DNA of 64,000 nucleotides from NCBI GenBank assembly GCA_947625765.1, contig CANQPP010000008.1:2222-66221 (forward strand), written 5' to 3'. This document shows positions 7,826-49,767 of this stretch, in pieces. The notes under the pieces were generated by a model. The model ran no database searches, was not told the DNA's origin, and saw nothing but the letters and a program-made list of their open reading frames with translations. This DNA comes from an uncultured Clostridia bacterium. Its GTDB lineage: Bacteria; Bacillota; Clostridia; Christensenellales; UBA1750. A program made the translations under genes and the position numbers. The number at the start of each line of letters is the position of its first letter. The first letter of the stretch is position 1.

Positions 7826-8533
7826 ATGGAGACGATCATCCGCTATGAGCCCCACGCGCACACCTCCCCGGTGAGCCGCTGCGCCAGGATGACGGCGGCG
7901 CAGATGGTCCACGAGGTGCGGCAGGCGGGCTACGACGCCGTGGTGACCACGGACCACTTCGACCCGGAGTTCTTCGCGGGAGCGGAGTCGGGCGCGGCCT
8001 ACAAGGCGCGGCTGCATGACTTCTTCTCCGGCTACCGGGCCGCGGCTGAGGCGGGCCAGAAGGAGGGCCTGCTGGTGCTGCCCGCGCTGGAGATGCGCAA
8101 CATCTTCGGCATGGAGGACTACCTCATCTACGGCGTGACGGAGGACGACTTAAAGGAAATGGGCTGCCTGGCCTATCTGCCCTTAAAGACCAGCCTGGCC
8201 CTGGTGCATCAGGCGGGCGGGCTGCTGTTCCAGGCGCACCCCTTTCGGGGGTACCTAAACTGCATGCCCGCGGACTGCATGGACGGCGTGGAGGTGGTCA
8301 ACGCCAACCCCCGCCACGACAGCCACAACGACCGGGTCCTGCGCTTTGGGCGGGAGCACGGTCTGCTGTTCGTGGCCGGGTCGGACGTGCACCAGTTCGG
8401 GGACGCGGGCACGGCGGGCCTGCTGGCCCCGCGGGCGGAGGATATACGTCAGTTTTGCGGCATACTGCGTGCGGGGAAGCAGCGCTGCTTTGTGCGCGAG
8501 GACGGCCGCGACCGCTTCGTGGAGGCGCTATGA
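7826..8533 (+). CDS. PHP-domain metal-dependent phosphoesterase
   Basis: 235 aa with HAHTSPVS...TDH motifs of the PHP fold. Confidence 0.7.
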   Translation: METIIRYEPHAHTSPVSRCARMTAAQMVHEVRQAGYDAVVTTDHFDPEFFAGAESGAAYKARLHDFFSGYRAAAEAGQKEGLLVLPALEMRNIFGMEDYLIYGVTEDDLKEMGCLAYLPLKTSLALVHQAGGLLFQAHPFRGYLNCMPADCMDGVEVVNANPRHDSHNDRVLRFGREHGLLFVAGSDVHQFGDAGTAGLLAPRAEDIRQFCGILRAGKQRCFVREDGRDRFVEAL

Positions 8534-9306
8534 TCGACGCCGTGCTGTCCTCCTTGCGCGCCTCTCTGGAAAAGGCGCTGGGCGGCGGGTTTTCCCTGTA
8601 CCTGTACGGTTCCGCCGCCCGGGGCGACTATCGGCCCCCGTGGAGCGACATCGACGTGCTGGCCCTGACGGAGGCCCCGCTGACGAGGGAACAGGCCGAG
8701 GGGCTTTTGTGCTTAAGGCAGACGCTGGGGCAAGGGGAGCCGGGCCTTCCCTTCCGCGCGCTGGAGGGCGGCATACTGCCCGCGGACGCCTTCCTAAACG
8801 GAGAGGCGGCGCTCTGCGTGTACTGGGGCACCAGCGGGGAGAGGCTGACGGAGGGGTATGCGCTCAATTCCTTGAGCCGCCTGGACCTGCTGAATCATGG
8901 CAGGCTCCTCTGCGGACGGGAGATGCGGGCCTACCTTGCGCGCCCCTCTTTTGACGAGCTGCGCGCGGACGTTCGGCGGCACTATGAGAGCATACGCGCC
9001 TACGCGGGCCGCACCGCGCCGGGCTACTACGCCTACGGCTGGCTGCTGGACATCGCACGGGGGCTGTACACGCTTAAAACGGGAGGCATCCTGCCCAAGA
9101 CGGAGGCGGGAAAATGGGCGCTGGAAAGGGGCTTGTGCCCGGAGGGAGAAGCGCGGGCGGTGCTGAAGGCGGCGCTGCGGCTGCGGGAGGACCCCTCGCT
9201 CCTGCAAAAGGAGCCAGAGTTCCTGCGGGAGGCGGAAAAGCTCAATGGGCCCATCCAGGCCTTCGCGGACGTGCTGGAAGAAGCGCTTCAAGAAAGCGGT
9301 GGATAA
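8530..9306 (+). CDS. nucleotidyltransferase-domain protein (aminoglycoside adenylyltransferase / DUF4111-like)
   Basis: LYLYGSAARGDYRPPWSDIDVLAL is an NTase (Pol-beta fold) motif. Its ATG overlaps the PHP gene's stop (ATGA). Confidence 0.65.
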   Translation: MIDAVLSSLRASLEKALGGGFSLYLYGSAARGDYRPPWSDIDVLALTEAPLTREQAEGLLCLRQTLGQGEPGLPFRALEGGILPADAFLNGEAALCVYWGTSGERLTEGYALNSLSRLDLLNHGRLLCGREMRAYLARPSFDELRADVRRHYESIRAYAGRTAPGYYAYGWLLDIARGLYTLKTGGILPKTEAGKWALERGLCPEGEARAVLKAALRLREDPSLLQKEPEFLREAEKLNGPIQAFADVLEEALQESGG

Positions 9307-9343
9307 GGGGCTTCAAACCTTAAAAGGAGAAGGGAAGCAGGAC

Positions 9344-10693
9344 ATGCAGGCAGCGGACAAGCCCATCGCGGCCATCGCCACGGCGCCGGGGCTTTCGGGC
9401 ATCGCCATCGTGCGTGTGTCCGGGCCGGGGGCGCTGGAGGCGGCGCGGCGGGTGTTCCACAAGAAGGCAAAGGGGCCCTATGAGAGCCACCGGCTCTATT
9501 ACGGCCGGGCCATGGAGGAGAACACGCCCATCGACGAAGCCATGGGCGTATATTTTCGCGCCCCGCGCAGCTACACCGGCGAGGACGTGTTCGAGGTGCA
9601 GTGCCACGGGGGCGGCGTGGCGGCGCGCTCGGTGCTGGCCGCCCTGCTCAAGGCGGGCTGCCGCCTGGCCGAGCCGGGGGAGTTCACCAAGCGGGCCTTC
9701 CTGAACGGACGGCTGCGCCTGGACGAGGCCGAGGCCGTGATGGACCTGATCGCGGCGTCCAGCGAGGCCGCGGCCCGCAGCGCCTATGCCCGGATGAACG
9801 GGGCGCTGACCCGGCAGCTGGGGCCGCTGGAGGAGGAGCTGCTGGACATGGCGGCCTCCCTGGAGGCGCTGCTGGAATACCCGGACGAGGACGTGGAGGA
9901 AAAAACCGTCCGCGAAACGCTGGGCGGGCTGGAGCCCGCGATCCAAAAGCTGGAAAATGCCATACGCGGCGCGCGGGCGGCGGAGAAGCTGCGGCAGGGC
10001 GTGCGGGTGGTGCTGTTCGGGGAGCCGAACGCGGGCAAGTCCTCGCTGCTGAACGCGCTGCTGTTGCGGGAGCGGGCCATCGTGACCGAGCTGCCCGGCA
10101 CCACGCGGGACGTTTTGCGGGAGGAGATGAGCATCCGCGGCCTGCCGGTGGTGCTCTCGGACACCGCGGGGCTGCGGGAAGCGCGGGACCGGGCCGAGGA
10201 AATGGGCGTTAAGCTGAGCCGGACGGAGCTTATGCAGGCGGACGTCGCCCTGCTGGTGCTGGATGCCTCGACGGAAAGCCTGCCGGGATTGCCGCCCTTT
10301 ACCTGCCCGCTGCTCGTGTGCATGAACAAGAGCGACCTAAAACAGGCGCTGGATGAGAAAGAAGTGCTCAAGGCCTACAAGCCGGCGGCGCTCCTGCACA
10401 CGAGCGCCGTAAGCGGCGAGGGGCTGGAGAAACTCAAGGATGCCCTGTACCGGCAGGCGGTGCGCCTGACGGACGGGGAGGCCGCGGGCCTGGCCGGGGA
10501 ACGGCAAGAGGAGCTGGCCAAGGAGGCGCTCGCCGCCCTGACGGACGCGCGGGAGGCCCTCGGCCAAGGCACGCTGGACATGGCGGCCATCGCCATCAGG
10601 CAGGGCTATGCCTCCCTTTGCGCCATCTTCGGCAAAGATGCGGACGAGAGCGTGATCGACCGCATCTTCCAGAAGTTCTGTTTGGGAAAGTAG
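9344..10693 (+). CDS. mnmE: tRNA modification GTPase MnmE
   Basis: IAAIATAPG...IVRVSG, G-domain GEPNAGKSSLLNAL and the C-terminal FCLGK motif. ATG 9344 follows AAAGGAGAAGGG. Confidence 0.95.
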   Translation: MQAADKPIAAIATAPGLSGIAIVRVSGPGALEAARRVFHKKAKGPYESHRLYYGRAMEENTPIDEAMGVYFRAPRSYTGEDVFEVQCHGGGVAARSVLAALLKAGCRLAEPGEFTKRAFLNGRLRLDEAEAVMDLIAASSEAAARSAYARMNGALTRQLGPLEEELLDMAASLEALLEYPDEDVEEKTVRETLGGLEPAIQKLENAIRGARAAEKLRQGVRVVLFGEPNAGKSSLLNALLLRERAIVTELPGTTRDVLREEMSIRGLPVVLSDTAGLREARDRAEEMGVKLSRTELMQADVALLVLDASTESLPGLPPFTCPLLVCMNKSDLKQALDEKEVLKAYKPAALLHTSAVSGEGLEKLKDALYRQAVRLTDGEAAGLAGERQEELAKEALAALTDAREALGQGTLDMAAIAIRQGYASLCAIFGKDADESVIDRIFQKFCLGK

Positions 10694-10737
10694 CCGACCC
10701 GCTTATAAGGCAGCGTGACCACTGCGGGGGGGAAACC

Positions 10738-10777
10738 GGGAGGGAAGGAGGGAGAGGCTCCCCCCTCCTTCCCTCCC
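10738..10777. repeat. perfect 15-bp inverted repeat with polypurine/polypyrimidine arms
   Basis: GGGAGGGAAGGAGGG (10738-10752), a 10-nt loop, then CCCTCCTTCCCTCCC (10763-10777). It lies 45 nt after the mnmE stop. Confidence 0.9.
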
Positions 10778-10915
10778 GGACCCTCCTTTTCTCCTCCCGC
10801 GCTCCCAAGGGGCGTTTCTTCTAATATAGAGGGGCTGGCTTTTCCCTTCTTCCGCCTGCGGAGATCGCAGGCGGCATCTGACCTTCAAGGAAATGATCAG
10901 CGGAGGTTTAACAGA

Positions 10916-11362
10916 ATGAGAGCGCCATTTGAGATCTTGGCAATCCCTTTCAGAAAAATATCTTCGCAAGAGATGGAGTTTTGTGTTTTTCATCGCGCGG
11001 ACTTCGACCAGTGGCAGTTTGTTTCCGGCGGCGGCGAGGATGAGGAAACGCCGACAGAGGCGGCGAAAAGAGAAATTTGGGAAGAAACGGGGATAAAGAC
11101 AAACAGCATTATAAAGCTGACATCCATGACATATATCCCCGCAAATATTTTCCTGGAGCGATACCGAAAATATTGGGCAAAAAACACCTATGTTATTCCC
11201 GAATACCACTTCGCGTTTGAATGTGTTTCAGACATAAAGTTATCCGATGAACACATCGGCTGCGAGTGGCTGCGTTATGAAGACGCTCTGGCGCGCCTTA
11301 CTTGGGATTCCAACAAAACAGCTTTGTATGAATTGCGCTGCCGATTGCTTGAAAGAGCTTAA
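10916..11362 (+). CDS. NUDIX hydrolase
   Basis: NUDIX box GGGEDEETPTEAAKREIWEETG. ATG 10916 follows GGAGG. The gene is visibly AT-richer than its flanks. Confidence 0.8.
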   Translation: MRAPFEILAIPFRKISSQEMEFCVFHRADFDQWQFVSGGGEDEETPTEAAKREIWEETGIKTNSIIKLTSMTYIPANIFLERYRKYWAKNTYVIPEYHFAFECVSDIKLSDEHIGCEWLRYEDALARLTWDSNKTALYELRCRLLERA

Positions 11363-11442
11363 AACCGGTAAAGAAAGATGGTTTGCTTGTATTAAAGTCA
11401 ACAAAAGACCCATCATTTTTATGGAGGATACAGGAAACGGAT

Positions 11443-13320
11443 ATGGACCAGAGCTTTGCGGCAAGGGAATACGACGCGGTGGTGATCGGCGCGGGGCACG
11501 CGGGCTGCGAGGCAGCCCTGGCGCTGGCCCGGATGGGGCTGGAGACGCTGCTGCTGACGCTGAACCTGGACGCCGTGGCCATGATGCCCTGCAACCCGTC
11601 CATCGGCGGCACGGCCAAGGGGCACCTGGTGCGGGAGGTGGACGCGCTGGGCGGCGAGATGGGCCGCGCCATCGACGATACCTACCTGCAGAGCCGGATG
11701 CTGAACACGGGCAAGGGGCCGGCGGTGCACTCCCTGCGCGCCCAGGCGGACAAGAAGGCGTATCAAAAGCGGATGCTGCGCGCGCTGCTGGAGCAGGAGA
11801 GACTGACACTGCGCCAGGGAGAGGCCAGCCGGATCCTTTTGGACGGACAGGGCCGCGTGCGGGCGGTGCGCACCCGCACGGGCGGGGAATACGCCTGCCG
11901 GGCTGTGGTGGCGACCACGGGCGTGTACCTAAAGTCGCGGGTCATCATCGGGGAAACGATGCTGGAGCAGGGGCCCTCGGGCCTGTTCCCGGCCACGGAG
12001 CTGAGCCGGGACCTGACGGAGCTGGGCTTTAGCCTGCGCCGCTTTAAGACCGGCACCCCGGCGCGGGTGGACATACGCACCGTGGACCTTTCCAAGTTGG
12101 AGCGACAGGACGGCGACGTGCCGCCCACGCCCTTCTCCTTCCTGAGCGGGGACATCTCCCGGCCGCAGCTGCCCTGCTATCTGGGCTACACCAACGAGCG
12201 CACCCACGAGATCATACGCCGCAACCTGCACCGGGCGCCCATGTATTCCGGCGCGCTGCACTCCACGGGCACGCGCTACTGCCCTTCCATCGAGGACAAG
12301 GTGGTGCGCTTCCCGGACAGGGACCGGCACCCACTGTTCCTGGAGCCGGAGGGGGAGAACAGCCCCGAATGGTACGTGCAGGGCATGTCCACCTCCATGC
12401 CGGAGGAGGTGCAGTACGAGATCTACTGCTCCATGGCGGGGTTCGAGCGCGTGGAGTTCCTGCGTCTCGCCTACGCCATCGAGTACGACTGCATCGACCC
12501 GCTGGAGCTGGACGGGTGCTTAAGCTCCCGGCGCATCCCGGGGCTGTACTTTGCCGGGCAGATCAACGGCACCTCCGGCTACGAGGAGGCCGCCGCGCAG
12601 GGCATCTACGCGGGGATCAACGCGGCGCTGTTCCTAAAAGGGCAGGAGCCGCTGCGCCTGACGCGGGCGGACGCCTACATAGGCGTTTTGGTGGATGACC
12701 TTACGAGCAAGGGCACCAACGAGCCCTACCGCATGATGACCGCGCGGGCGGAGTACCGCCTGCTGCTGCGCCAGGACAACGCCGACCTCCGGCTGACGGA
12801 GCGCGCCTACCGGGCGGGATTGGCCTCACGGGAGCGGTACGAGAAGATGTTGAAGAAGCGGCAGGAGACGGAGGCGCTCATGGAGGCGCTCAAAAACACG
12901 CGCCTGCCCGCGGAGGCGGCCGCAAGGCTCACCGGGCAGGAGGAAAAGGGGCCCTCCAGCGCGTACATGCTGCTAAAGCGCGACAATATACACGTTTCCG
13001 ACCTGCGGCGGGAGGCGGAGCTGCCCATCTCCTCCCCGGAGGCGGAGGAGCAGGCGGAGATCGAGGCGCGGTACGAGGGGTACCTAACGCGCCAGAACGC
13101 GCAGGTGGAGCAGTTCCGCCGCTCGGAGGCGCTGCGGCTGCCGCCGGACCTTGACTTTATGGCCATGACGAACCTTAGGATCGAGGCGCGGCAGAAGCTG
13201 ACCGCCCTCCGGCCGGAAACGCTAGGCGCGGCCTCGCGCATCTCCGGCGTGTCGCCTGGGGACATCGCCGTGCTGCTGGTGGAATTGGAGCGGCGGCGCA
13301 GAAGGGAGGCCGGGGAATGA
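11443..13320 (+). CDS. mnmG: tRNA uridine 5-carboxymethylaminomethyl modification enzyme MnmG
   Basis: YDAVVIGAGHAGCEAALA FAD motif and a full-length GidA-like sequence. ATG 11443 follows GGAGGA. Confidence 0.95.
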   Translation: MDQSFAAREYDAVVIGAGHAGCEAALALARMGLETLLLTLNLDAVAMMPCNPSIGGTAKGHLVREVDALGGEMGRAIDDTYLQSRMLNTGKGPAVHSLRAQADKKAYQKRMLRALLEQERLTLRQGEASRILLDGQGRVRAVRTRTGGEYACRAVVATTGVYLKSRVIIGETMLEQGPSGLFPATELSRDLTELGFSLRRFKTGTPARVDIRTVDLSKLERQDGDVPPTPFSFLSGDISRPQLPCYLGYTNERTHEIIRRNLHRAPMYSGALHSTGTRYCPSIEDKVVRFPDRDRHPLFLEPEGENSPEWYVQGMSTSMPEEVQYEIYCSMAGFERVEFLRLAYAIEYDCIDPLELDGCLSSRRIPGLYFAGQINGTSGYEEAAAQGIYAGINAALFLKGQEPLRLTRADAYIGVLVDDLTSKGTNEPYRMMTARAEYRLLLRQDNADLRLTERAYRAGLASRERYEKMLKKRQETEALMEALKNTRLPAEAAARLTGQEEKGPSSAYMLLKRDNIHVSDLRREAELPISSPEAEEQAEIEARYEGYLTRQNAQVEQFRRSEALRLPPDLDFMAMTNLRIEARQKLTALRPETLGAASRISGVSPGDIAVLLVELERRRRREAGE

Positions 13321-14027
13321 CGACGTTCACGGAGGCGCTTCTGGAAGGCGCAAAGCGGATGGAGATTGAGCTGGACCCCGCCGCCGCTGAGCGGATGGAG
13401 GCCTTCCACAGGCTTTTGCAGGAGAAAAACAGGGTGATGAACCTGACCGCCGTGACCGAGGACGGCGAGGCCCTGCGCGTCCACTACCTGGACAGCCTAG
13501 CCCCGCTGGGCCTGGGGCTTGTGCGCGGGGATGAGCGCCTGGCCGACGTGGGCACGGGCGCGGGCTTTCCGGGGATGCCGCTTTTGATCGCGCGGCCCAC
13601 TTTGCAAGTCTGCTTCGTGGACAGCCTGCAGAAGCGGCTGAACTTCATCCAAGAGGCGCTGGAGGCGCTGGGCTTGCGGGCGGACTGCGTCCACCTGCGG
13701 GCGGAGGACTTTGGCCGCGAGCAAACACACAAGGAGCGCTACGACCTGGCCACGGCGCGGGCGGTGGCGTCCCTGCCGGTGCTGATGGAATACCTGCTGC
13801 CCTGCGTGCGCGTGGGCGGCGCGGCCCTCTGCTGGAAGGGGCCGGGCGTGGAGGAGGAAAAGGCCGACCGGGCCGCCGCGCTGCTGGGCGGCGGGAGGAT
13901 CGACCTTAAGCCCTACGAGCTGCCGGGCGGGGAGTTCCACCACCTGCTGGCGCGTGTAGAGAAGACGCGGCCCACGCCGCCCGCCTACCCGCGGAAGGCG
14001 GGCGTCCCGGCGAAAAAGCCCCTTTAA
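13317..14027 (+). CDS. rsmG: 16S rRNA (guanine527-N7)-methyltransferase RsmG
   Basis: 236 aa with DVGTGAGFPGMPL SAM motif. Its start overlaps the mnmG stop by 4 nt. Confidence 0.9.
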   Translation: MTTFTEALLEGAKRMEIELDPAAAERMEAFHRLLQEKNRVMNLTAVTEDGEALRVHYLDSLAPLGLGLVRGDERLADVGTGAGFPGMPLLIARPTLQVCFVDSLQKRLNFIQEALEALGLRADCVHLRAEDFGREQTHKERYDLATARAVASLPVLMEYLLPCVRVGGAALCWKGPGVEEEKADRAAALLGGGRIDLKPYELPGGEFHHLLARVEKTRPTPPAYPRKAGVPAKKPL

Positions 14028-33197: not shown

Positions 33198-33359
33198 AAA
33201 GGGCGTCCATGGCTATTATACCGTTTCTTGGCGGGAAAGAGAAGGGGGATGGCTCAATTCCCGGAACCAAAATCTGCCCGGGCGCAGAGAGATGTGCGGA
33301 AGTTACCGCCCGCGCGTTTCACGTGCAACGGCGCGGGGCCTGCGGGAACGCGCCTTGTT

Positions 33360-34208
33360 TCACGTGGAACGCCGCGGGATCACCAAGCGGATCTCCAGCC
33401 CGCGGTCGGTCTCGGTGGCGGCGTAATCGGGCTTTAGGCCCGCGGACTGCATCTGCTGGACCACGGTGCGGATGGAGTTCAAATAAAGCCTCGCGTCGCG
33501 CACCACGGGGGACATCTTCTTCTGGGGCTTGTCCTCCTTTTCGATGCCGTACATGCGGGCGATGGTGCGCTCGACCAGCTCCTCGGTGGCCTTGACGTTT
33601 AAGGAATTCTCCACGATGACGTTGGCGATCTGGATCTGCATGCGCTCGTCGTGCAGGCGCAAAAGGGCGCGGGCGTGGCGCTCGGTGAGGTTGTACTTGA
33701 GCAGCAGTGCCTTGACGGAATCGGGGAGCTTCAGTATGCGCATCTTGTTGGCGATGGTGGACTGGTTCTTGCCCAGGCGGCGGGCCAGCTCCTCCTGGGA
33801 GAGGCTGTGGTCGCGGATGAGGTTCTGGTAGCCCTCGGCCTCCTCCATGTAGTGCAGGTTCTCCCTTTGCAGATTCTCCATCATGGCAATGACGGCGCTG
33901 TCCTGCTCGTAGGCGGAAAAGACGATGGCGTCGATGGAGGTCATGCCGGCCATGCGGCAGGCGCGCAGGCGGCGCTCCCCGGCGATGAGCTCGTAGCTTT
34001 CGCCGCCGGCGGCCTTGCGCACGGAGATGGGCTGCAGCAGGCCGTACTGCCGGATGGACTGGCACAGCTCCTCCAGGCCGCTCTCGGAGAAGACGCGGCG
34101 CGGCTGGTAGGGATTGGGCCGGATGAGGTCGATGGGGATGCGCGCCACCTCCCTTTGCCTCATGCGGATGTTTCTCCTCGCGGTGGGAACCTGGTTCTGC
34201 AGCATCAT
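33360..34208 (-). CDS. noc: ParB-like nucleoid occlusion protein
   Basis: IDLIRPNPYQPRRVF, LLQPISVR and LIAGERRLRA boxes. ATG 34208 follows AAAGGGG. It lies upstream of parA-parB as in other Firmicutes. Confidence 0.8.
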   Translation of the reverse strand: MMLQNQVPTARRNIRMRQREVARIPIDLIRPNPYQPRRVFSESGLEELCQSIRQYGLLQPISVRKAAGGESYELIAGERRLRACRMAGMTSIDAIVFSAYEQDSAVIAMMENLQRENLHYMEEAEGYQNLIRDHSLSQEELARRLGKNQSTIANKMRILKLPDSVKALLLKYNLTERHARALLRLHDERMQIQIANVIVENSLNVKATEELVERTIARMYGIEKEDKPQKKMSPVVRDARLYLNSIRTVVQQMQSAGLKPDYAATETDRGLEIRLVIPRRST

Positions 34209-38945: not shown

Positions 38946-41441
38946 TTACTCGCCGTCCGCAGGCTCCGGCGCCTCGGGATTCTCCACGCCTTCCTGCACG
39001 TTTATCTCCTCCTCGTCGGAGGGCTCCTCGTGCTCGGCCACGGTCAGCGCCACCACCTTCGCGTTTTCGCCCAGCCGCATGAGCCTCACGCCCTGGGTGG
39101 AGCGTCCCTGCTCCCGCACGCTCTCGATGGGCGTGCGGATCACGGTGCCGTCGTCGGTGATGAGCAGCATATCCATGTCCGCGCGCACCATGCGCAGCGC
39201 CACCAAATCGCCGGTCTTCGCGCTCAGCTGCATGGCCTTGATGCCCTTTCCGGCCCTGGACTGCAGGCGGTACTCCTCCAAGGGGCTCCGCTTGCCGTAG
39301 CCGTTCTCGGTCACGGCCAGCAGCTCGTATTCCTCCTCCTCGGGAGAGGCCAGGCACAGGGAGACCACGCAGTCCCCTTCGTCCAGCTCGATGGACTTAA
39401 CGCCCATGGCGCCGCGGCCCGTGGCGCGGATGCCGTCCTCCCGGAAGCGGATGGACTGCCCCTTGCGGGTGGCGACCAGCACGTCGTTTTCCCCGGTGGA
39501 CAGGGCCACGCCGATCAGCTCGTCCTCCTCGCGCAGGGAGATGGCGATCAGCCCGCTTGCGCGCACGTTGTCGAACTCCGAGAACTCCGTGCGCTTGATG
39601 AGGCCATTCCTGGTGGCCAGGATCAGGTGGGAGCTGCCGCCCTCGGGCACGGGGATCACGGCCTGCACCTTCTCGCCGCCGTCCAGCTGTAGCAGGTTCA
39701 CGATGGCCGTTCCCTTTGCGGTGCGCCCGGCCTCGGGGATCTCGTAGCACATCTTGACGAAGACCCTGCCGCGGGAGGTAAAGAACATGAGCTTGGAATG
39801 GGTGGAGGTGACGAACAGGTCCTCCACGAAGTCCTCCTCGCGGGTGGTGAGGCCCGCGATGCCCTTGCCGCCCCTGCGCTGGGCCCGGTAGGTGTCGGCG
39901 GATACGCGCTTGATGTAGCCAAAGTGGGTCAGCGTCACCGCCATGTCCTCTTCCTGGATCATGTCGGCCAACACGATCTCGTCCTCCACCGGCTCTATGC
40001 CCGTGCGGCGGGGATCGGCGTACTTGTTCTTAAGGGCCGTGATCTCGGTCTTGATGATGCCGCGCACCATTTCGTCGGACTCAAGCACCGCACGGAAATA
40101 CGCGATCTGCTCCATCAGCTCGTCGTATTCGGCCTGCAGCCTCTCGCGTTCCAAGCCCGTCAGCCTTTGCAGGCGCATATCCAAAATGGCCTGCGCCTGC
40201 TTTTCGGAAAAGGCAAACTCCTCCATCAGGGCGTCCTTGGCCTCCTGGCCGGTGCGGGAGGAGCGGATCAGCTGTATGATGCGGTCGATGTGGTCCAGGG
40301 CCTTGAGCAGGCCTTCCAGTATGTGGGCGCGGGCCTCGGCCTTGCTCAGGTCGTACTTGGTGCGCCGGACGATCACGTCCTTCTGGTGCTCGATGTAGTA
40401 ATAGAGCATCTGCTGCAGGTTCAGCACGCGAGGCTCGCCGTTGACCAGGGCCAGCATGATGACGCCGAAGGTATCCTGCAGCTGGGTGTGCTTAAAGAGC
40501 GTGTTGAGCACGATGTTGGCGTTCACGTCGCGCTTAAGTTCGATCACGATGCGCATGCCCTTGCGGTCGGACTCGTCGCGCAGGTCGGAGATGCCCTCCA
40601 CGCGCTTTTCGTGCACAAGCTCCGCGATCTTCTCCACCAGTCGCGCCTTGTTGACCTGGTAGGGGATCTCGGTCACGACGATGCGGGAGCGGTTAGGGCC
40701 CATCTGCTCGATCTCGGTGCGGGCGCGGGTCACGATCCTTCCCTTGCCGGTCATGTAGGCCTGGCGGATGCCGGAGAGGCCCATGATGACGCCGCCGGTG
40801 GGGAAGTCCGGGCCGGGGATATACTCCATCAGCTCGGGCACGGTGATGTCGGGCTTGTCCAGCATGGCGACCACGCCGTCGATCACCTCGCCCAGGTTGT
40901 GGGGCGGTATGTTGGTGGCCATGCCCACGGCGATGCCGCCGGAGCCGTTGACCAGCAGGTTCGGGAAGCGGGAGGGCAGCACCTCCGGCTGCATCAGGGA
41001 CTCGTCGAAGTTGGGATAGAAATCGACGGTCTCCTTGTCGATGTCCGCGACCATCTCCATGGCCATCTTGGAAAGCCGCGCCTCGGTGTATCGCATGGCG
41101 GCGGCGCCGTCGCCGTCCACGGAGCCGAAGTTTCCCTGTCCCTCCACCAGCAGGCAGCGGGTGGAAAAGTCCTGCGCTAAACGCACCATGGCGTCGTAGA
41201 CCGCGGTGTCCCCGTGGGGATGGTACTTACCCAGGACCTCGCCCACGATGCGGGCGGACTTCTTAAACGGCTTATCGGGGGTCATGCCCAGCTCGTTCAT
41301 GGCGTACAGTATACGCCGATGCACGGGCTTTAGGCCGTCGCGCACGTCCGGCAGGGCGCGGTTGATGATCACGGCCATAGCGTAGGAGATAAAGGAGTGT
41401 TTGAGCTCCTCCTCCAGATCTATGGGTTTCAGCCTGTCCAT
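38946..41441 (-). CDS. gyrA: DNA gyrase subunit A
   Basis: Full-length GyrA ([30 protein letters not shown], active-site AAMRYTE). ATG 41441 lies 5 nt after GAAGGAGG. Confidence 0.95.
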
Positions 41442-41487
41442 GTTGGCCTCCTTCAACTCTCAAGCAAAAAGACTTCTTTGTTTGGTG

Positions 41488-43464
<1,977 letters not shown>

Positions 43465-43477
43465 TTATTTCTCGTTT

Positions 43478-43735
43478 TTATTTCTCGTCCGCCTTGAAGG
43501 GCGCCTCGGCCCGCTCCAGGAGCGTGGCCGACGAGACGGGCGACCAATAGACCTTTGCGCGCTTATCCCTTTTGCCCTTGCACAGGACCGCGGACTTGAC
43601 GCCTCCCTCCGGCCCCTCGCCGCCCGCCAGCTGCAAAAAGCGCTGGGTGTCGGGGCTTAAGGCCGTGGACAGGTCCAGGATCATCAGGATGTCCCGGGAA
43701 AGGACGGAAACGTCGCCGCCGATGTGGAGCAGCAT
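43478..43735 (-). CDS. remB: DUF370 / RemB-like small protein
   Basis: 85 aa, MLLHIGGDVSVLSRDILMILDL..., located immediately upstream of gyrB as in other Firmicutes. Confidence 0.7.
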   Translation of the reverse strand: MLLHIGGDVSVLSRDILMILDLSTALSPDTQRFLQLAGGEGPEGGVKSAVLCKGKRDKRAKVYWSPVSSATLLERAEAPFKADEK

Positions 43736-43774
43736 CCTTTTCTCCCCTTTCCGCCTTTTTCCTACTTATATTAT

Positions 43775-43783
43775 ATTATACCA
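43775..43783 (-). promoter_or_regulatory. extended -10 element upstream of remB
   Basis: Minus strand reads TGGTATAAT inside a markedly AT-rich stretch (43745-43900). Confidence 0.4.
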
Positions 43784-44076
43784 TTTTTGCCTCCCTTTTA
43801 AAAGGGGCATAAAGACCTGAAAATCAAAAGGACAGACCATCAAAAAAGCCCAAAATAAAGGGATTTTTGGCCTTTCAATTTGATAACGAAAATTTAATTG
43901 AAGAAACTCCTTTTTCCCGCCGGAAAGGGAAGCGGACAAAGAGCCGTTTTCGCGTCCATTTTTCGTTTTTTCTGCGGTTTCAAACCGAAAAAGAGAAGGG
44001 GCTTCCCTCGATCATTTCCCGGAAAGCCCCGTATCCGATCCCTTGCAGACTGTGACGATTTAAGATAAAGTAGCCG

Positions 44077-44347
44077 TAATAGTAGTAGTACGGTGGAAAG
44101 AGTGGAAAAGTGGAAAAAACCCGAGAAGGGAGCCGTGTTTTCGACCACAGGGGGTTGTGGAAAACGTGGGAGGTTTATCCACAGCCGCGCTTGTTTATCC
44201 ACAACGGCCAAATGCAAGTGCCGATTTTCAAGTGCAGTTTTCAAGTGCTGTCGATGGGGTGAGGACCCATCTTGTAAAAGGCTGTTTGCAAAGTGCATGG
44301 GCTTTTCCACTTATCCACTCACAAGGGGAAGGACCCCCTGTGGACAA
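44077..44347. promoter_or_regulatory. DnaA-box cluster with adjacent TAG-trio run and CAAGTGC direct repeats (oriC-like element)
   Basis: Elements in order along the + strand:
- TAATAGTAGTAGTAC (44077-44091)
- three GTGGAAA-core 9-mers (44092-44118)
- TGTGGAAAA (44156-44164)
- perfect TTATCCACA at 44175-44183 and 44195-44203
- three CAAGTGC repeats (44215-44248)
- TTTTCCACT and TTATCCACT (44303-44319)
- TGTGGACAA (44339-44347). Confidence 0.6.
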
Positions 44348-44359
44348 AATGTGGGGTGT

Positions 44360-45124
44360 TTACCGCAGGATGCGGTGGACGGTGTACGTCCCCTCCAGCT
44401 GGTAGCCGAGCTTCTGGCTCAGGTGCAGGGAGAGCTCGTTGGCGGCGTCCCAGTTGGCCAGCTTGCCCCGGCGCTTGACCTCCAAGACCAGACGGGCCGC
44501 CGCGGCCGCGGCAAGGCCCCTGCGGCGATAGGCGGGGTTCGTGGCGATGCCGACCTCGATGCCGCCGTCGAACACGCTGAAGGCCGGCGCGATGGCGGCC
44601 AGTTTCTCACCCTTCAACACAACGAAGCCGAAGCCCTGCCTCTCAAAGTCCTCCCTGGAGGCGTACTGCTCCACGTATTCGTAGGCCCAGGGCAGGGAGC
44701 GGGCCGTGAGGTAATGCTCGCCCGTCATGGCCGAAAGCGTGAATCCCTCCGGCAGTTCGGCAAAAAGGGACATTAAATGATTCTCGTTCAAGGCCTCCAT
44801 ATCCTTCTTCAGCATGAACCGCGTAAGGACGGCCGACCTTTCTCCCACCGCGCGGTCGAATAAGGCCTTCCACCTTTCCTCAAAGGAGACGAGGTAGGCG
44901 CCGACGGGAAGGCCCTCGATCAGCTTCTCCGCCTCCGGGTCGGTCTCGTCGCCGCCGAAGTAGTGGTACTCGCCGCACCAGGCGTGTACAAAGCGCAGGG
45001 GGGTCGTATCCCCCGTTTCCGCCCCGCCCATGTAGCCCTGCAGGGCCGAGCAGAGAGCGGTATCCTGTATGCCCGGAAACAGGTATAGGAGCGAGCGGGA
45101 AACTTCCGTTGTCAGTGGCTGCAT
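44360..45124 (-). CDS. GNAT family N-acetyltransferase
   Basis: C-terminal acetyl-CoA binding pattern VGIATNPAYRRRGLAAAAAARLV. Confidence 0.7.
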   Translation of the reverse strand: MQPLTTEVSRSLLYLFPGIQDTALCSALQGYMGGAETGDTTPLRFVHAWCGEYHYFGGDETDPEAEKLIEGLPVGAYLVSFEERWKALFDRAVGERSAVLTRFMLKKDMEALNENHLMSLFAELPEGFTLSAMTGEHYLTARSLPWAYEYVEQYASREDFERQGFGFVVLKGEKLAAIAPAFSVFDGGIEVGIATNPAYRRRGLAAAAAARLVLEVKRRGKLANWDAANELSLHLSQKLGYQLEGTYTVHRILR

Positions 45125-45130
45125 GTCTCT

Positions 45131-45811
45131 TTACTCCCTTGCCTCGAACATGGACTTGGGCACGCCGCAGACCGGGCAGGTCCAGTCGTCGGGCAGATCC
45201 TCAAAGGGTATATCGCCGCTGTACTCATAGCCGCAGATGGCGCAGACGTATTTTTTGCCGGAAGGAGCCGCCTCCGCGCTTTTTGCGGGGGCCGCTTCTT
45301 GGCTCCTGCTCTCCTCGGGGACATAGGTGGGCGCCAGCGCCGGGCTCTTGCCCTTGCGCTCCGTCTGGTAGTAGGCGTAGGACATCGGGCGGCCGGCAGA
45401 GACCGTCTCGCCGCTTATCAGGCGCGCAAAGAACACGTCGTGGGTGCCCATATGCAGCTGCTCACACACGGCGAACTCCATGTAGGCGCACAGGCCTTCT
45501 TTCAGGCGCGGCAGGCCGTTTTGTGTCAGGACCATGCCGGAAGACTTATCAGTGTCGCGGGACGACTTAAAGCCGTACAGGCCGATGGTCTCGCTCGGGC
45601 AGTCCTCCGTCAAAACGCTGGCCGTGAACAGCCCCGCCTTTTCGATCATCCCGCAGGTGTTGTTCTGGGTGTTCACGCACACGGCGAACACCGCGGGCTC
45701 CGACGTCACCTGGAACAGCGTGTTCACCACGCAGCCGCCTACCTGCTCCCTCGTCTTGACCCCCAGCACATACAGGCCGTAGGTCATGGAATGAAAGACC
45801 TTCGCATCCAT
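45131..45811 (-). CDS. flavin reductase-rubredoxin fusion (high-molecular-weight rubredoxin type)
   Basis: N-terminal flavin reductase-like domain (YGLYVLGV...GGCVVNT) and C-terminal rubredoxin with CAICGYEY...WTCPVCG. Confidence 0.8.
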
Positions 45812-46023
45812 AAAAGCATCCTCCTTAAAGGGTCTGAACTTTCGCTGATCCTATCATAACACGAAACCGGCGCGAAAAAAACTGCCTGGCACGTGGAAAA
45901 ACTCCCCCTGCCGCGTTAAGCCTTCATAAAGAATCTGCCCGCCTTTGAATTTTTCAGAATACACCCGAAAGAGCTTCCATTTTTTCTTGAACCGTTCTTT
46001 ATATACAGAAACAATATTATAAT

Positions 46024-46065
46024 ATAAAAATGAGAGAAAGGAGCGACCCCAAGGCCGCTCCTTTC
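46024..46065 (-). terminator. intrinsic terminator of the surface-protein gene
   Basis: Minus strand reads GAAAGGAGCG-gccttggggt-CGCTCCTTTC followed by TCTCATTTTTAT. Confidence 0.7.
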
Positions 46066-46080: not shown

Positions 46081-49000
46081 TTATTCCGTGATCTCCAAAT
46101 AGGGCAGGTAGGGCAGCAGGTTTTCCTGCGCGCAGTCCAGATACATCGCGCTGACCCAGGCCGGGCGGCCCTTCCAGTCGATTTGCACCCAGCCGTCCTC
46201 CGGCGCGGAGGCGTACACCCATTCCCCGCGCTTGAGCGTCCCCAGCCGCCGATCCTCCGTCCCCGGCCCGCTGCGCACGTTCAGCGTCCGCGCGATCACG
46301 CACAGGCAGTCGGACAGGGGCGCGATGTACTCCATCGAGACATAGCCCGTCCGCCCATCGGGCAGGAGCACGAAGCCCCAGCGCTCGGCGCCGCTTCCCG
46401 TCTCCGTTTCGCTTTTTTCGATGAGCAGCAGCCTCTGCCCTTTCTTGAGGCTCCCGCTCTTTTCATACCCGGTCCCCGGGCCGGAACGCAGGTTGAGCTT
46501 CTCGCACAGCACCACGTGCTCCCGGATGGGCTCTTCCTCCTCCTCTTCCTCGCTCCATAGGAGGATGCCGGCGACGGGCTGCAGGGGGATCTCCTCAAAG
46601 ACCGCGCCGATGACCATATCGTGGGCGGGCATGTCGAAGCCGTAGCCCGTCTTGCCCTCGGACAGTGTAACATAGGTATTTTCCCGATCGGCCGGGTCGT
46701 AGGCGTAGACCTCCTTCACCCGCCAGCCCATGTCGGCCTGGGGCGTTACGCGCACCCACAGCCCTTCCTCGGCCTGCGTGAGGCTCGGGAGCAGGCTCCC
46801 GTGCCGGATATCTTCCTCCAGCGTGACCGCATACGTTTTCGCGGGCAGGGGGCCGTTGGTCACGCAGATTACGCCGCCGGTCGAGCTTGTCCCGCCGGAC
46901 TTCGCCGCATAGGGTTCTATCGGGAGGGTGAAGCCCTCCGTGTCGGCCAGCTCCCAGCGGAAGCGGTTCACCGCCCCCGCCTCGGCGGAGAAGCTCCCCT
47001 CCAGCGTCCAGAGAACGGGCAGCTCCACGGCCTCCTCCCGGTCGGAGAGGAAAGCCTGCACGGAGCTGCGCTGCTTATACAGCTCCCGCAGCGTATCCTC
47101 CGCGCTCTTTAGTGGCGCGGTCAGCACCAGGTCCTCGATGGCCTTAACGCTTTTTAGCACCGGCTTCTTCGGCGGCGCGGGGGCGACGGGCTCCGACGCC
47201 GGGCTGACCGCTTCGCCTCTCCAAATTCCAAGTCCGACCACCCGCACCCGCAGACAACTGCCCACGTCTCCTTCATTCGGGATGTAGCCAAGGCCCGTCG
47301 CGCCCGCGATCTGCTGGAAGCGCAGGCCGTTCTTCGGCCGCTTCTCCCAGACCGCGAGAAAGCTGTCCTTCTCCGTCGCGCCCTCGACGACGGCGGTCAG
47401 AGGAAGGCCGACCTGGGGCGCGCCTTCCAGATACACGGTGACGGCCAGCGCGCGCCCCTTTACCGGGCCGATGGGCTCGCTGTACATCTCCAGCTCCGGC
47501 GCCCAGGCGCGGAAGAACAGGCCCTCGTCGCGCTCCTGCAGGGTGTATTCTCCATTTCCGCTTCCGGGCAGCGTTTCGTAGACGCCGTCGGCCAGCGCGG
47601 CCCGCTGCCAGTAAACCTCAATTTCGTCCTGTTTCGCGGCCTCTCCGATAAGCACGGCGCGAGCGCGCAGCGTTTCGCCCAGCAGCGCCTCGCCCTCGAT
47701 CTCGAACCGCACGCTTTCGTTTCCCGGCAGCAGCGGGCCGATGACCGGGCTCAACAGGTTGTTGCCGTAGTTCTCCCTGCCCACGACCACCAGGCGCAGG
47801 TATTTGCCGATCAGCGCCGCGCCGGGCGTGAAGCTCTCGGCGTAGGCGTTCGGGATGGGCTCAAAATCACCGTCGGGGCGGTCGCAGACCTCCCACTGGA
47901 AGCCCAGCCAGTCCTTGTGAAGGCCTAAAGGCAGGCGGACGCGCAGCGTTTCCCCCGTTCGGTAGCTCGCCGCGTCCTTAGCCTGCACCCGCTCGATCTG
48001 GACGTTTCCCTCCAGGGGCAGCAGTCGCACCGGGCCCACGGGCTCGCTCACGACCTCGCCTTCCCGGCCCTCGGCCGTGACGCGCAGGCGCAGAAACTTG
48101 CCCGTCCACAGGGCCAGGACCGTCAGCTCCTCCCCTTCCGCGCCTGGGATGTCGCGGAACTCGCCAAAGGGCTTGCCGCCCAGGGATTCCGCGATCTGCC
48201 AGTGAAAGACCGCGTTTTCGGGCAGATCTGCGCCCTTGGCTTGCTGCTTGTTCGTGGCGAGGGGTTCGCCCTGTATTTGTACGCTGCCGCTCATGGGCGG
48301 CGTGGGAGGAAGTTCCACGGGCCCGACCGCCGCACTGCATACGGCCTCGTCCTCGCGGCCCTCCTGCCAGACGCGGACGCGCAGGCGGTAGTCGAGGTCT
48401 TCGACATCGATCTCATACGACGGCCCCTCCGCGCCCGAGATCGTCTTGTATTCGCCGCCCGCGCCGCGCTCCCAGGCGTAGAACAGGGCGGGCTTTTCCG
48501 TTCCCTCCATCCCCTCGCGGACCGTCAGCTGCGCGGTGAGCGTGCTGCCCACGAGCGCTTCCCCCTCCAGCGTCACGCCGCTGAGGTAGAGGGGCGGCTT
48601 TTCGCTCACGGTCAGACCGCCGTCCTTGAGCGAAAAAGCCCTGCCGCCGGGCAGGGAGAAGGCGGCCGCGTCGGCGGCGTTCAATGTATGGCCCGCCGTG
48701 CCCGCAAACACCGCGCTGTCTTTGGGGGTTTTCTCCGATATGGCCAGCTCCACGCGGCCCGTGAGCGCCGAGGCCAGCGGGATGGGCAGGTTCCAGCCGT
48801 CCAGCTGCAGGCCCTCCGCCTGCTCGTTCGCCGCGTTTCCCTCGATGGTCAAATTCCCGCCCAGCGTAAGGGACGGGGACGGATAGGAGGGCAAAGTCTC
48901 CAAACAAAGAACGGCGGACTCATCCGCCGCGTTGTCTTGGATCGTGCCGCCCAGCAGCTCCACGCTTGCCGCCGCGCCGTAGGGCTCCACATAAACGGCG

Positions 49001-49638
49001 CCGCCCCGCGATGCCCGGTTGCCCGAGAGCTCGCCGTCCTCCAAACGCAGGTAAGCGCCGCCCAACAATGCCGCCGCGCCGCCCTTTTCCGCGCCGCAGC
49101 CGCGGATCGTGCCGCCCTCGAGTATGAGAGAGGCCTCATTCACGCAGACGCCACCGCCCAGGAGATCGGAGGCGTCCGAGCTCAAGATGTTCCCCTCCAG
49201 CACAGCGTTTTCGCCCAATACGCAGGTGGAGCCCGTCTGCAGCGCGATCAGCGGCGTGGAGGCGTTTTCCGTGCCCACCAGGCGCACGTTGCGCAGCGTC
49301 AGGCGGGAGCCCGGGTACACCGTGAAACCAGTGCCGTATTTTCCATCCGTAAAAATAGAAACGCCGTCGCCCGCGCCTTCGATCAGAATATCCTGGTCTT
49401 CATAAATATAGATCGGGAGGTCCAACGTGAAGTCATTCGTTACCGTGATGGTCGCGGAACCATAAATCGAAGCGAGCTCCTTCTCCAGCTCAGCGCTGCT
49501 TGAAGCGGTCTTGGCATCCGCCGCCGCCCGCTCGGGGACAATTAAACAGCCCATAAAAAGGACAAGGGCCAGCAGCAGGGCCGGAACGCGGCGGAAAGGT
49601 CTGGAAAAACGGGAAAAGCGCGGCAGCATGGGCCTCAT
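46081..49638 (-). CDS. large secreted cell-surface protein (beta-helix region, five Ig-like repeats, InlB-B-like repeat, two SH3b domains)
   Basis: Signal peptide is VPALLLALVLFMGCLIV. GG(x)xxV/N repeats in aa 150-300 suggest a parallel beta-helix. C-terminal LNLRSGPGTGY... and LNVRSGPGTEDRRLG...GWVQIDWKGRPAWV are SH3b-like. Start is ambiguous (49677 GTG, 49638 ATG or 49629 ATG). Confidence 0.8.
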   Translation of the reverse strand: MRPMLPRFSRFSRPFRRVPALLLALVLFMGCLIVPERAAADAKTASSSAELEKELASIYGSATITVTNDFTLDLPIYIYEDQDILIEGAGDGVSIFTDGKYGTGFTVYPGSRLTLRNVRLVGTENASTPLIALQTGSTCVLGENAVLEGNILSSDASDLLGGGVCVNEASLILEGGTIRGCGAEKGGAAALLGGAYLRLEDGELSGNRASRGGAVYVEPYGAAASVELLGGTIQDNAADESAVLCLETLPSYPSPSLTLGGNLTIEGNAANEQAEGLQLDGWNLPIPLASALTGRVELAISEKTPKDSAVFAGTAGHTLNAADAAAFSLPGGRAFSLKDGGLTVSEKPPLYLSGVTLEGEALVGSTLTAQLTVREGMEGTEKPALFYAWERGAGGEYKTISGAEGPSYEIDVEDLDYRLRVRVWQEGREDEAVCSAAVGPVELPPTPPMSGSVQIQGEPLATNKQQAKGADLPENAVFHWQIAESLGGKPFGEFRDIPGAEGEELTVLALWTGKFLRLRVTAEGREGEVVSEPVGPVRLLPLEGNVQIERVQAKDAASYRTGETLRVRLPLGLHKDWLGFQWEVCDRPDGDFEPIPNAYAESFTPGAALIGKYLRLVVVGRENYGNNLLSPVIGPLLPGNESVRFEIEGEALLGETLRARAVLIGEAAKQDEIEVYWQRAALADGVYETLPGSGNGEYTLQERDEGLFFRAWAPELEMYSEPIGPVKGRALAVTVYLEGAPQVGLPLTAVVEGATEKDSFLAVWEKRPKNGLRFQQIAGATGLGYIPNEGDVGSCLRVRVVGLGIWRGEAVSPASEPVAPAPPKKPVLKSVKAIEDLVLTAPLKSAEDTLRELYKQRSSVQAFLSDREEAVELPVLWTLEGSFSAEAGAVNRFRWELADTEGFTLPIEPYAAKSGGTSSTGGVICVTNGPLPAKTYAVTLEEDIRHGSLLPSLTQAEEGLWVRVTPQADMGWRVKEVYAYDPADRENTYVTLSEGKTGYGFDMPAHDMVIGAVFEEIPLQPVAGILLWSEEEEEEEPIREHVVLCEKLNLRSGPGTGYEKSGSLKKGQRLLLIEKSETETGSGAERWGFVLLPDGRTGYVSMEYIAPLSDCLCVIARTLNVRSGPGTEDRRLGTLKRGEWVYASAPEDGWVQIDWKGRPAWVSAMYLDCAQENLLPYLPYLEITE
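47182..48585 (-). repeat. five tandem ~90-aa coding repeats inside the surface-protein gene
   Basis: Each unit follows the pattern G(E/S)xL...(Y/F)xW...I(P/S)GAxGxxY...D.G..LRVRV...PVGPV. Approximate unit boundaries are aa 365-455, 463-552, 556-650, 656-741 and 745-832. Confidence 0.6.
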
Positions 49639-49767
49639 CCTTTCGGTGGGAAATTGGTATTTTTTTCCAGTATACACCGAAAGACGAAGAAGTACATAAT
49701 AAATTTAAAGAAAATATAAAATCTGGTCATATAAATTAGAGGAAAATGACAAATTTAAAAAGATAGC

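Follow-up and report, generated by a model that had tools for sequence, protein, structure and literature searches.

The DNA analysed here (the window) is a stretch of 64,000 nt from a 63% GC genome of the Christensenellales (Clostridia). The best matches of its GyrB, at 90% identity, are MAGs labelled Clostridia or Christensenellales. The feature under study lies in the non-coding gap between a remB-like gene and a GNAT acetyltransferase gene, which measures 624 bp (43736-44359) and not about 270 bp, as the original prediction had it. The genes that matter for the argument are given below, and other loci are cited by number (L001 and so on).

38946-41456, minus strand: gyrA (Pfam)
41488-43410, minus strand: gyrB (Pfam)
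43478-43735, minus strand: remB-like gene, 85 aa, with a weak PF04025 RemA-like match (E = 0.043)
44360-45124, minus strand: GNAT acetyltransferase gene (Pfam)
44360 to 45811, minus strand: GNAT and flavin reductase/rubredoxin genes (Pfam), the foreign side of the junction, in the position of recF in L003 and L088
9.2-14 kb, plus strand: mnmE-gidA-gidB
34.4-31.5 kb, minus strand: noc-soj-spo0J

The remB-gyrB-gyrA neighbourhood and the GNAT gene are thus as predicted. For the remB-like gene, the weak PF04025 match is complemented by orthologues that lie upstream of gyrB at many loci, those of L087 and L089 being annotated with PF04025. This gene marks the conserved remB-gyrB-gyrA side of the junction. 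On the other side, L001 and L092 too have the GNAT and flavin reductase pair attached at the box end of their modules.

Neither dnaA, dnaN nor recF was found within the 64-kb window, by Pfam on the called genes or by tblastn with the proteins of relatives, in agreement with the original prediction. The distance to dnaA-dnaN-recF is therefore more than 19.6 kb if these genes lie to the right, and more than 44 kb if they lie to the left. Origin-proximal genes are present in the window, yet scattered, with mnmE-gidA-gidB and noc-soj-spo0J within 35 kb of the module. At 7826-14027, mnmE-gidA-gidB (plus strand) lacks the usual upstream jag-yidC-rnpA-rpmH and is accompanied instead by an AadA-like nucleotidyltransferase ORF and a PHP-like ORF. 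Origin-proximal gene blocks are shuffled across the whole clade (also in L083, L088 and L094). Two parS-like sites, CGTTTCACGTGCAACG (33315-33330) and TGTTTCACGTGGAACG (33356-33371), stand at the noc/soj junction, about 11 kb from the module, where 0.14 would be expected by chance. On the other side of the module, the gene of a 1198-aa SH3-repeat protein (46081-49677) is flanked by 45995-46034 and 49697-49736, two of the three least stable and most AT-rich 40-mers of the window. This gene is missing from L001 and may be a recently acquired surface-protein gene.

The intergenic gap holds the following elements, in order of position.

43775 to 43802, minus strand: promoter-like site TTTAAA-16-TG-TATAAT for remB-gyrB-gyrA, bordering the module and outside the module proper
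43991 to 44009, minus strand: terminator-like hairpin with a T run, between the trios and the remB promoter (consensus scan only)
44040 to 44076, on the trio side: moderately AT-rich stretch gatttaagataaagtag, 58-65% AT in the 63% GC genome
44068 to 44091, plus strand: DnaA-trio run, 5'->3' AAG TAG ccg TAA TAG TAG TAG TAC
44092 to 44117, minus strand: three co-oriented tandem DnaA boxes, head-to-tail, directly adjoining the trios
44092-44100: tandem box 1, GGTGGAAAG, three mismatches to TGTGGATAA
44101-44109: tandem box 2, AGTGGAAAA, two mismatches to TGTGGATAA
44109-44117: tandem box 3, AGTGGAAAA, two mismatches to TGTGGATAA
44156 to 44347, mixed strands: further DnaA-box array, the predicted platform for double-strand DnaA assembly
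44156-44164, minus strand: box TGTGGAAAA
44175-44183, plus strand: perfect box TTATCCACA
44195-44203, plus strand: perfect box TTATCCACA
44303-44311, plus strand: box TTTTCCACT
44311-44319, plus strand: box TTATCCACT
44339-44347, minus strand: box TGTGGACAA

All the trios, tandem boxes and further boxes of the original prediction were found in place when the sequence was read again. The five trios nearest to the boxes (TAA TAG TAG TAG TAC, 44077-44091) are contiguous and in phase, three of them being exact TAG; beyond them there is one break and then two more trios. The trio run is the predicted single-strand track for a DnaA filament and the predicted start of unwinding, while the tandem pair or triplet at 44092-44117 would direct DnaA onto it. 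From its position relative to the trios, the AT-rich stretch at 44040 to 44076 is predicted to continue the unwound region and to serve as the helicase entry site. The trio region is a local minimum of duplex stability, at -47 kcal per 40 bp where the window averages -61 (SD 4.7), a deviation of about 3 SD.

The extended -10 motif upstream of gyrB is kept in L002, L003, L087, L088 and L089, and the hairpin could end read-through transcription from the GNAT gene that crosses the whole box cluster. The gap (43736-44359) gave no protein family match in Pfam and no Rfam match above noise, and the cluster region showed no plasmid or phage similarity. An ORF overlapping the cluster (43894-44310, minus strand) was rejected as a gene, as it belongs to no family and resembles the ORF of L002 only in the translated boxes and trios. 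Two tandem copies of a 13-bp repeat, TTTTCAAGTGC[A/T]G, and copies of CAAGTGC and CAAAGTGC occupy 44215-44250 and 44289-44296, inside the box cluster. The repeat is no DnaA box, is not conserved in L001, L002 or L003, and differs in one copy (44232 G>T) among other strains; it may be neutral or a binding site particular to the species.

These elements can be compared with the basal unwinding system (BUS) of bacterial origins. Pelliciari et al. (2021) searched for three or more central-A (NAN) trios and, no more than 16 bp from them, a box with up to two mismatches; a tandem second box with up to four mismatches was optional, and the trio-distal box is the better match in BUS origins (PMC8287927). 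In the window, box AGTGGAAAA at 44101-44109 has two mismatches and lies 9 bp from the last trio, within the 0-16 bp allowed to a TTATCCACA-type box. For the second box (at most four mismatches, gap of at most 3 bp), GGTGGAAAG has three mismatches and is directly adjacent, and the third box, AGTGGAAAA, qualifies too. The trio run, where at least three consecutive 3'-NAN-5' trios are asked for and 3'-GAT-5' is preferred, counts five. Polarity is also standard, the trios being 5' of the TGTGGATAA-type boxes on the same strand. We checked this on the dnaA-dnaN origins of L013, L063, L065, L078 and L090, in all of which the boxes face dnaA and the trios face dnaN; the polarity in the window is identical, with the boxes toward the upstream gene and the trios toward remB-gyrB. 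As expected of an oriC, the DnaA-box cluster (8 boxes in 247 bp) lies beside a helically unstable region in non-coding DNA. What the window does not have is the Firmicutes bipartite arrangement, two clusters split by dnaA and spanning up to ~2 kb: neither dnaA nor a second cluster occurs in the 19.6 kb on the right of the module or the 44 kb on its left. At the level of sequence, we regard the site as a BUS-type module with high confidence.

The signature is rare. Boxes with at most one mismatch number 21 in the window against 4.05 expected, a count that none of 100 shuffles reached, and five of them fall inside 192 bp at this site. At two mismatches or fewer, 8 boxes lie in 44101-44347 (247 bp), compared with a window mean of 0.58 per 320 bp and no more than three in any other 320-bp stretch of the window. 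A strict scan, which required a box with no more than two mismatches and, 16 nt or less away, three or more TA[GA] trios, matched the window only once, and matched none of 300 Markov-simulated windows. When 1.4 Mb of loci were scanned on both strands for the trio-plus-box pattern in a relaxed tandem-pair form, the nine matches were either dnaA-dnaN gaps (L026, L063, L069, L090) or members of the clade with the module upstream of gyrB (the window, L001, L003, L088, L092). The pattern TAGTAGNNCGGTGGANANNGTGGAWAAG had four matches in 241 million metagenome records: L090 and L091, both between dnaA and dnaN; L092, a flavin reductase-GNAT-[module] contig from human gut; and L093, a chance match inside an ORF of a 32% GC organism.

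The module, meaning trios, GC spacer, tandem box pair and further boxes, is present in five Christensenellales assemblies (L001, L002, L003, L088 and L092). GyrB identity to the window is 90% for L001 and L002 and 80-81% for L003 and L088, while L092 is identical to L001 over the module. Each relative has TAG-type trios, a spacer that is GGC, TGC or none, two abutting boxes (0-bp gap) with the distal one as the better match, and further boxes at conserved positions. Conservation of the boxes and trios, which the original prediction had named as a check, is borne out, the remaining spacer having diverged: when four species are aligned, the invariant share is 41% for positions in boxes and trios and 9% for the others (p = 4e-12). 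Across the strains of four metagenome runs, 44012-44359 has 4-6 variable sites against 23 in 43736-44011 (p <= 1.6e-4), and none of the variable sites falls within the trios or tandem boxes. Near-identical modules occupy the standard dnaA-dnaN gap in other Clostridia. The module of L090, TAGTAGTAGTAC GGTGGAAAC GGTGGAAAA, is located in this gap and is almost the same as that of the window, so that the window element is homologous to the one marking the standard clostridial origin. The number of boxes differs with the context: modules detached from dnaA have 8-9, attached ones 5-7, and the module in the dnaA-dnaN gap of L090 has 3. The dnaA loci of relatives carry 3-5 boxes upstream of dnaA and no trios there.

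Synteny with relatives gives a history for this arrangement. L088 has the order jag<yidC<yidD<rnpA<rpmH, 4-5 boxes, dnaA>dnaN>recF>[module]>gyrB>gyrA>mnmE, and L003 likewise keeps dnaA-dnaN-recF-[module]-gyrB. In both, dnaA-dnaN-recF (~3.6 kb) separates the module from the small cluster upstream of dnaA, and the dnaA-dnaN gap is only 44-48 bp (L003 635-683, L088 4550-4594). From this order and this short gap it follows that the clade keeps its unwinding element between recF and gyrB. In L083-L086 and L081, where gyrB is no longer downstream, the order is rpmH, boxes, dnaA-dnaN-recF-hydrolase-hrcA-grpE-dnaK-dnaJ, with dnaA-dnaN gaps of 83-86 bp (L083 9918-10001; L081 566-652). Gaps of 44-86 bp, as found in these relatives, are too short for a standard oriC2. 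L083-L085 have 3-4 boxes upstream of dnaA, without trios, and no trios were found anywhere in the recovered DNA of the dnaA loci of L083-L086 and L081.

Upstream of the module, the window and L002 have unrelated DNA. The 3' end of the GNAT and flavin reductase pair occupies this place in the window, L001 and L092. L083 and the window share a block from DUF5685 to rhamnose isomerase at 73-80% nucleotide identity, and the homologues of DUF5685 in relatives have different genes upstream. In L001 (6697-8443, compared with window 44077-45811), [module-GNAT-flavin reductase] has the opposite orientation with respect to remB-gyrB, so that the putative origin lies within a small inversion. The original prediction had the cluster sitting in the place of recF, dnaN and dnaA. 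The GNAT gene does now hold the position that recF has in L003 and L088, but there was no replacement by the cluster: since relatives hold the module between recF and gyrB, dnaA-dnaN-recF must have been cut off upstream.

We hypothesize the following sequence of events. In the ancestor of the clade, the module would have stood not in the dnaA-dnaN gap but between recF and gyrB, and dnaA-dnaN-recF would have formed the spacer of a two-part origin. Later, in the lineage to which the window, L001 and L002 belong, a rearrangement would have cut between recF and the module, so that the module remained with remB-gyrB-gyrA, and dnaA-dnaN-recF, with the small box cluster upstream of dnaA, would now be located more than 19.6 kb (right) or more than 44 kb (left) away. 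The module, with its 8-9 boxes, would now work alone as a self-contained origin. Detachment seems recent, because its state differs among the related assemblies compared (75-90% GyrA/GyrB identity).

Neither gene strand nor GC skew switches at this site in the window. A run of 31 consecutive genes on the minus strand (15174-53323) has the module inside it and not at its edge. A fork moving rightward would thus meet the six genes that follow the module on that side (44.4-53.3 kb) head-on. The missing strand switch, cited in the original prediction as counter-evidence, is therefore real in the window, but L001 and L002 do have a divergence of gene strands at the module or near it, as does L088 within 4 kb. 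The cumulative GC skew, a check that had been proposed for the whole replicon, has no minimum at 44 kb in the window. In the per-gene analysis, third-position skew tracks the coding strand (C3>G3) in most genes of either orientation. Being dominated by codon usage, GC skew is uninformative for replication direction over 64 kb, and it was dropped as such a signal, both overall and at third codon positions. Marker frequency from metagenome depth was rejected as well, the expected gradient being <2% across 64 kb and the Logan contig depths flat by construction.

Taken together, 44040-44347 is most likely an oriC2/incC-type unwinding module, equivalent to the BUS of B. subtilis. We consider that this module is the DnaA-dependent unwinding origin of the chromosome, self-contained and far from dnaA, and we would give this reading, which draws on sequence comparison, a probability of about 0.68. 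Of the possibilities raised by the original prediction, a working origin uncoupled from dnaA is thus the one that the comparative data favour. We infer that DnaA would bind the module, unwind it and fire replication there. In the proposed mechanism, DnaA-ATP would fill the eight 9-mer boxes, and the co-oriented tandem boxes (44092-44117) would position a DnaA filament, which could extend 3'->5' along the plus strand over the trios, from 44091 back to 44068. The locally AT-rich region 44040-44091 would then melt, allowing helicase loading and, after it, bidirectional replication. It is tempting to propose, and we lean slightly towards this view, that the clade moved the essential unwinding half of its origin from the dnaA-dnaN gap to the space between recF and gyrB, and that in some species, including that of the window, this half was uncoupled from dnaA and the dnaA-proximal cluster, a BUS with extra boxes alone being the origin.

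Other explanations have to be weighed against a self-contained origin. Chance clustering of box-like 9-mers, or a chimeric assembly of unrelated DNA, would account for the unusual gene context, and nothing else speaks for it. It is refuted by the present results: shuffles and simulations never reproduce the cluster, the module is conserved in relatives, and independent contigs from other metagenome runs cover both junctions. The junctions are no assembly artefact, because independent rabbit-gut metagenome contigs of 4.7-5.7 kb span gyrB, remB, the cluster, the GNAT gene and the flavin reductase gene. Contig depth at 43002-43335 is 300-600x, compared with 7-10x on either side; as this is a strongly conserved gyrB stretch common to many community members, the jump is a mapping artefact and no amplification. 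The module could also be a retired or auxiliary DnaA-binding cluster, the relic of an origin half, that titrates DnaA or modulates remB-gyrB-gyrA while the true origin lies next to dnaA. The lack of a strand or skew switch at 44 kb would agree with this, B. subtilis is known to have DnaA-box clusters that are not origins, and the window genome's own dnaA locus, beside which a second trio-bearing origin might lie, is outside the 64 kb compared, the evidence on dnaA loci being that of relatives. We nevertheless find it unlikely. Five species and four strains keep the trios invariant and in phase while the adjacent spacer decays, and we know of no role for DnaA-trios outside unwinding. Moreover, trios are missing from the dnaA loci of the nearest relatives, in which the dnaA-dnaN gap also leaves no space for them. 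As a repressor or activator site the cluster is poorly placed, because it lies 275-570 bp upstream of the remB promoter with the terminator-like hairpin in between.

A somewhat less probable alternative is a long-range split origin of which the module is one half, or a pair of origins of which it is one; it would then need, or share firing with, a cluster upstream of the distant dnaA. Two clusters flanking dnaA-dnaN-recF are indeed the ancestral state (L088), and in C. difficile as in B. subtilis the two halves each take part in origin function (PMC7561715; PMC4285127). A lone oriC2-type module might even be insufficient, because melting of the C. difficile origin in vitro required both box clusters (PMC7561715). 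However, the partner would be at least 19.6 kb away, whereas bipartite origins reach a length of up to ~2 kb (PMC4285127). No second DnaA-box cluster exists elsewhere in the 64 kb, and detached modules are richer in boxes than attached ones. The half of a split origin, which the original prediction had also considered, thus holds as history, given the two-part layout of L003 and L088, but not as the favoured present-day reading, which remains that of a self-contained origin.

Among known systems, the module can be compared with the unwinding region of B. subtilis, where incC/BUS (boxes 6 and 7, trios, AT-rich region) sits between dnaA and dnaN. Common to both are co-oriented tandem boxes, a short GC spacer, 3'-GAT-5' trios on the same strand and a trio-distal box that matches better. 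The polarity (upstream gene, boxes, trios, downstream gene) and the presence of three boxes beside the trios are also shared. Unlike in B. subtilis, the window module is upstream of remB-gyrB and has no dnaA-proximal partner cluster within 20-44 kb; its tandem boxes abut or overlap (gap 0 or -1 bp); and in place of the long AT-rich 27-mer there are ~35-50 bp of moderately AT-rich DNA in a 63% GC genome. E. coli oriC, located between gidA and mioC about 42 kb from dnaA, is likewise continuous and unlinked to dnaA, and the polarity of its unwinding element to the adjacent box (DUE-R1) is matched in the window, although it belongs to another phylum and has other accessory elements. As a dense array of consensus DnaA boxes away from dnaA, the module also resembles the DBCs of B. 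subtilis and datA of E. coli. It differs from these, as described, by its in-phase trios abutting a tandem box pair, a combination with which, to our knowledge, neither has been described.

In C. difficile and other clostridial bipartite origins, oriC1 is in the rpmH-dnaA region and oriC2 in dnaA-dnaN (PMC7561715). The window shares with the C. difficile origin the class Clostridia and an oriC2-type trio-plus-box module, and relatives (L083, L088) have a small cluster upstream of dnaA. Three boxes beside the trio are found in B. subtilis and C. difficile too (PMC7561715). Unlike in C. difficile, L003 and L088 have oriC2 beyond dnaN and recF, and the oriC2 of the window is fully detached from dnaA and oriC1. 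Origin organization has been reported to be conserved in Firmicutes, with rnpA-rpmH-dnaA-dnaN and unwinding in the dnaA-dnaN gap (PMC7561715), and the layout of the window departs from it. In many bacteria, oriC can occur in other gene contexts, according to reviews (PMC4285127). In the literature searched, we found no report of an oriC between recF and gyrB or upstream of gyrB, nor of Christensenellaceae origins.

If the module is a self-contained origin, this lineage would be a natural experiment indicating that the two-part, dnaA-linked layout is dispensable in Firmicutes. Its members would offer natural variants with which to ask whether the second cluster and cis linkage to dnaA are needed, how many additional boxes a BUS module requires to suffice by itself, and how origins move during genome rearrangement. 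Tools that anchor on dnaA to predict origins or to estimate growth rates would place the origin wrongly in these common gut bacteria.
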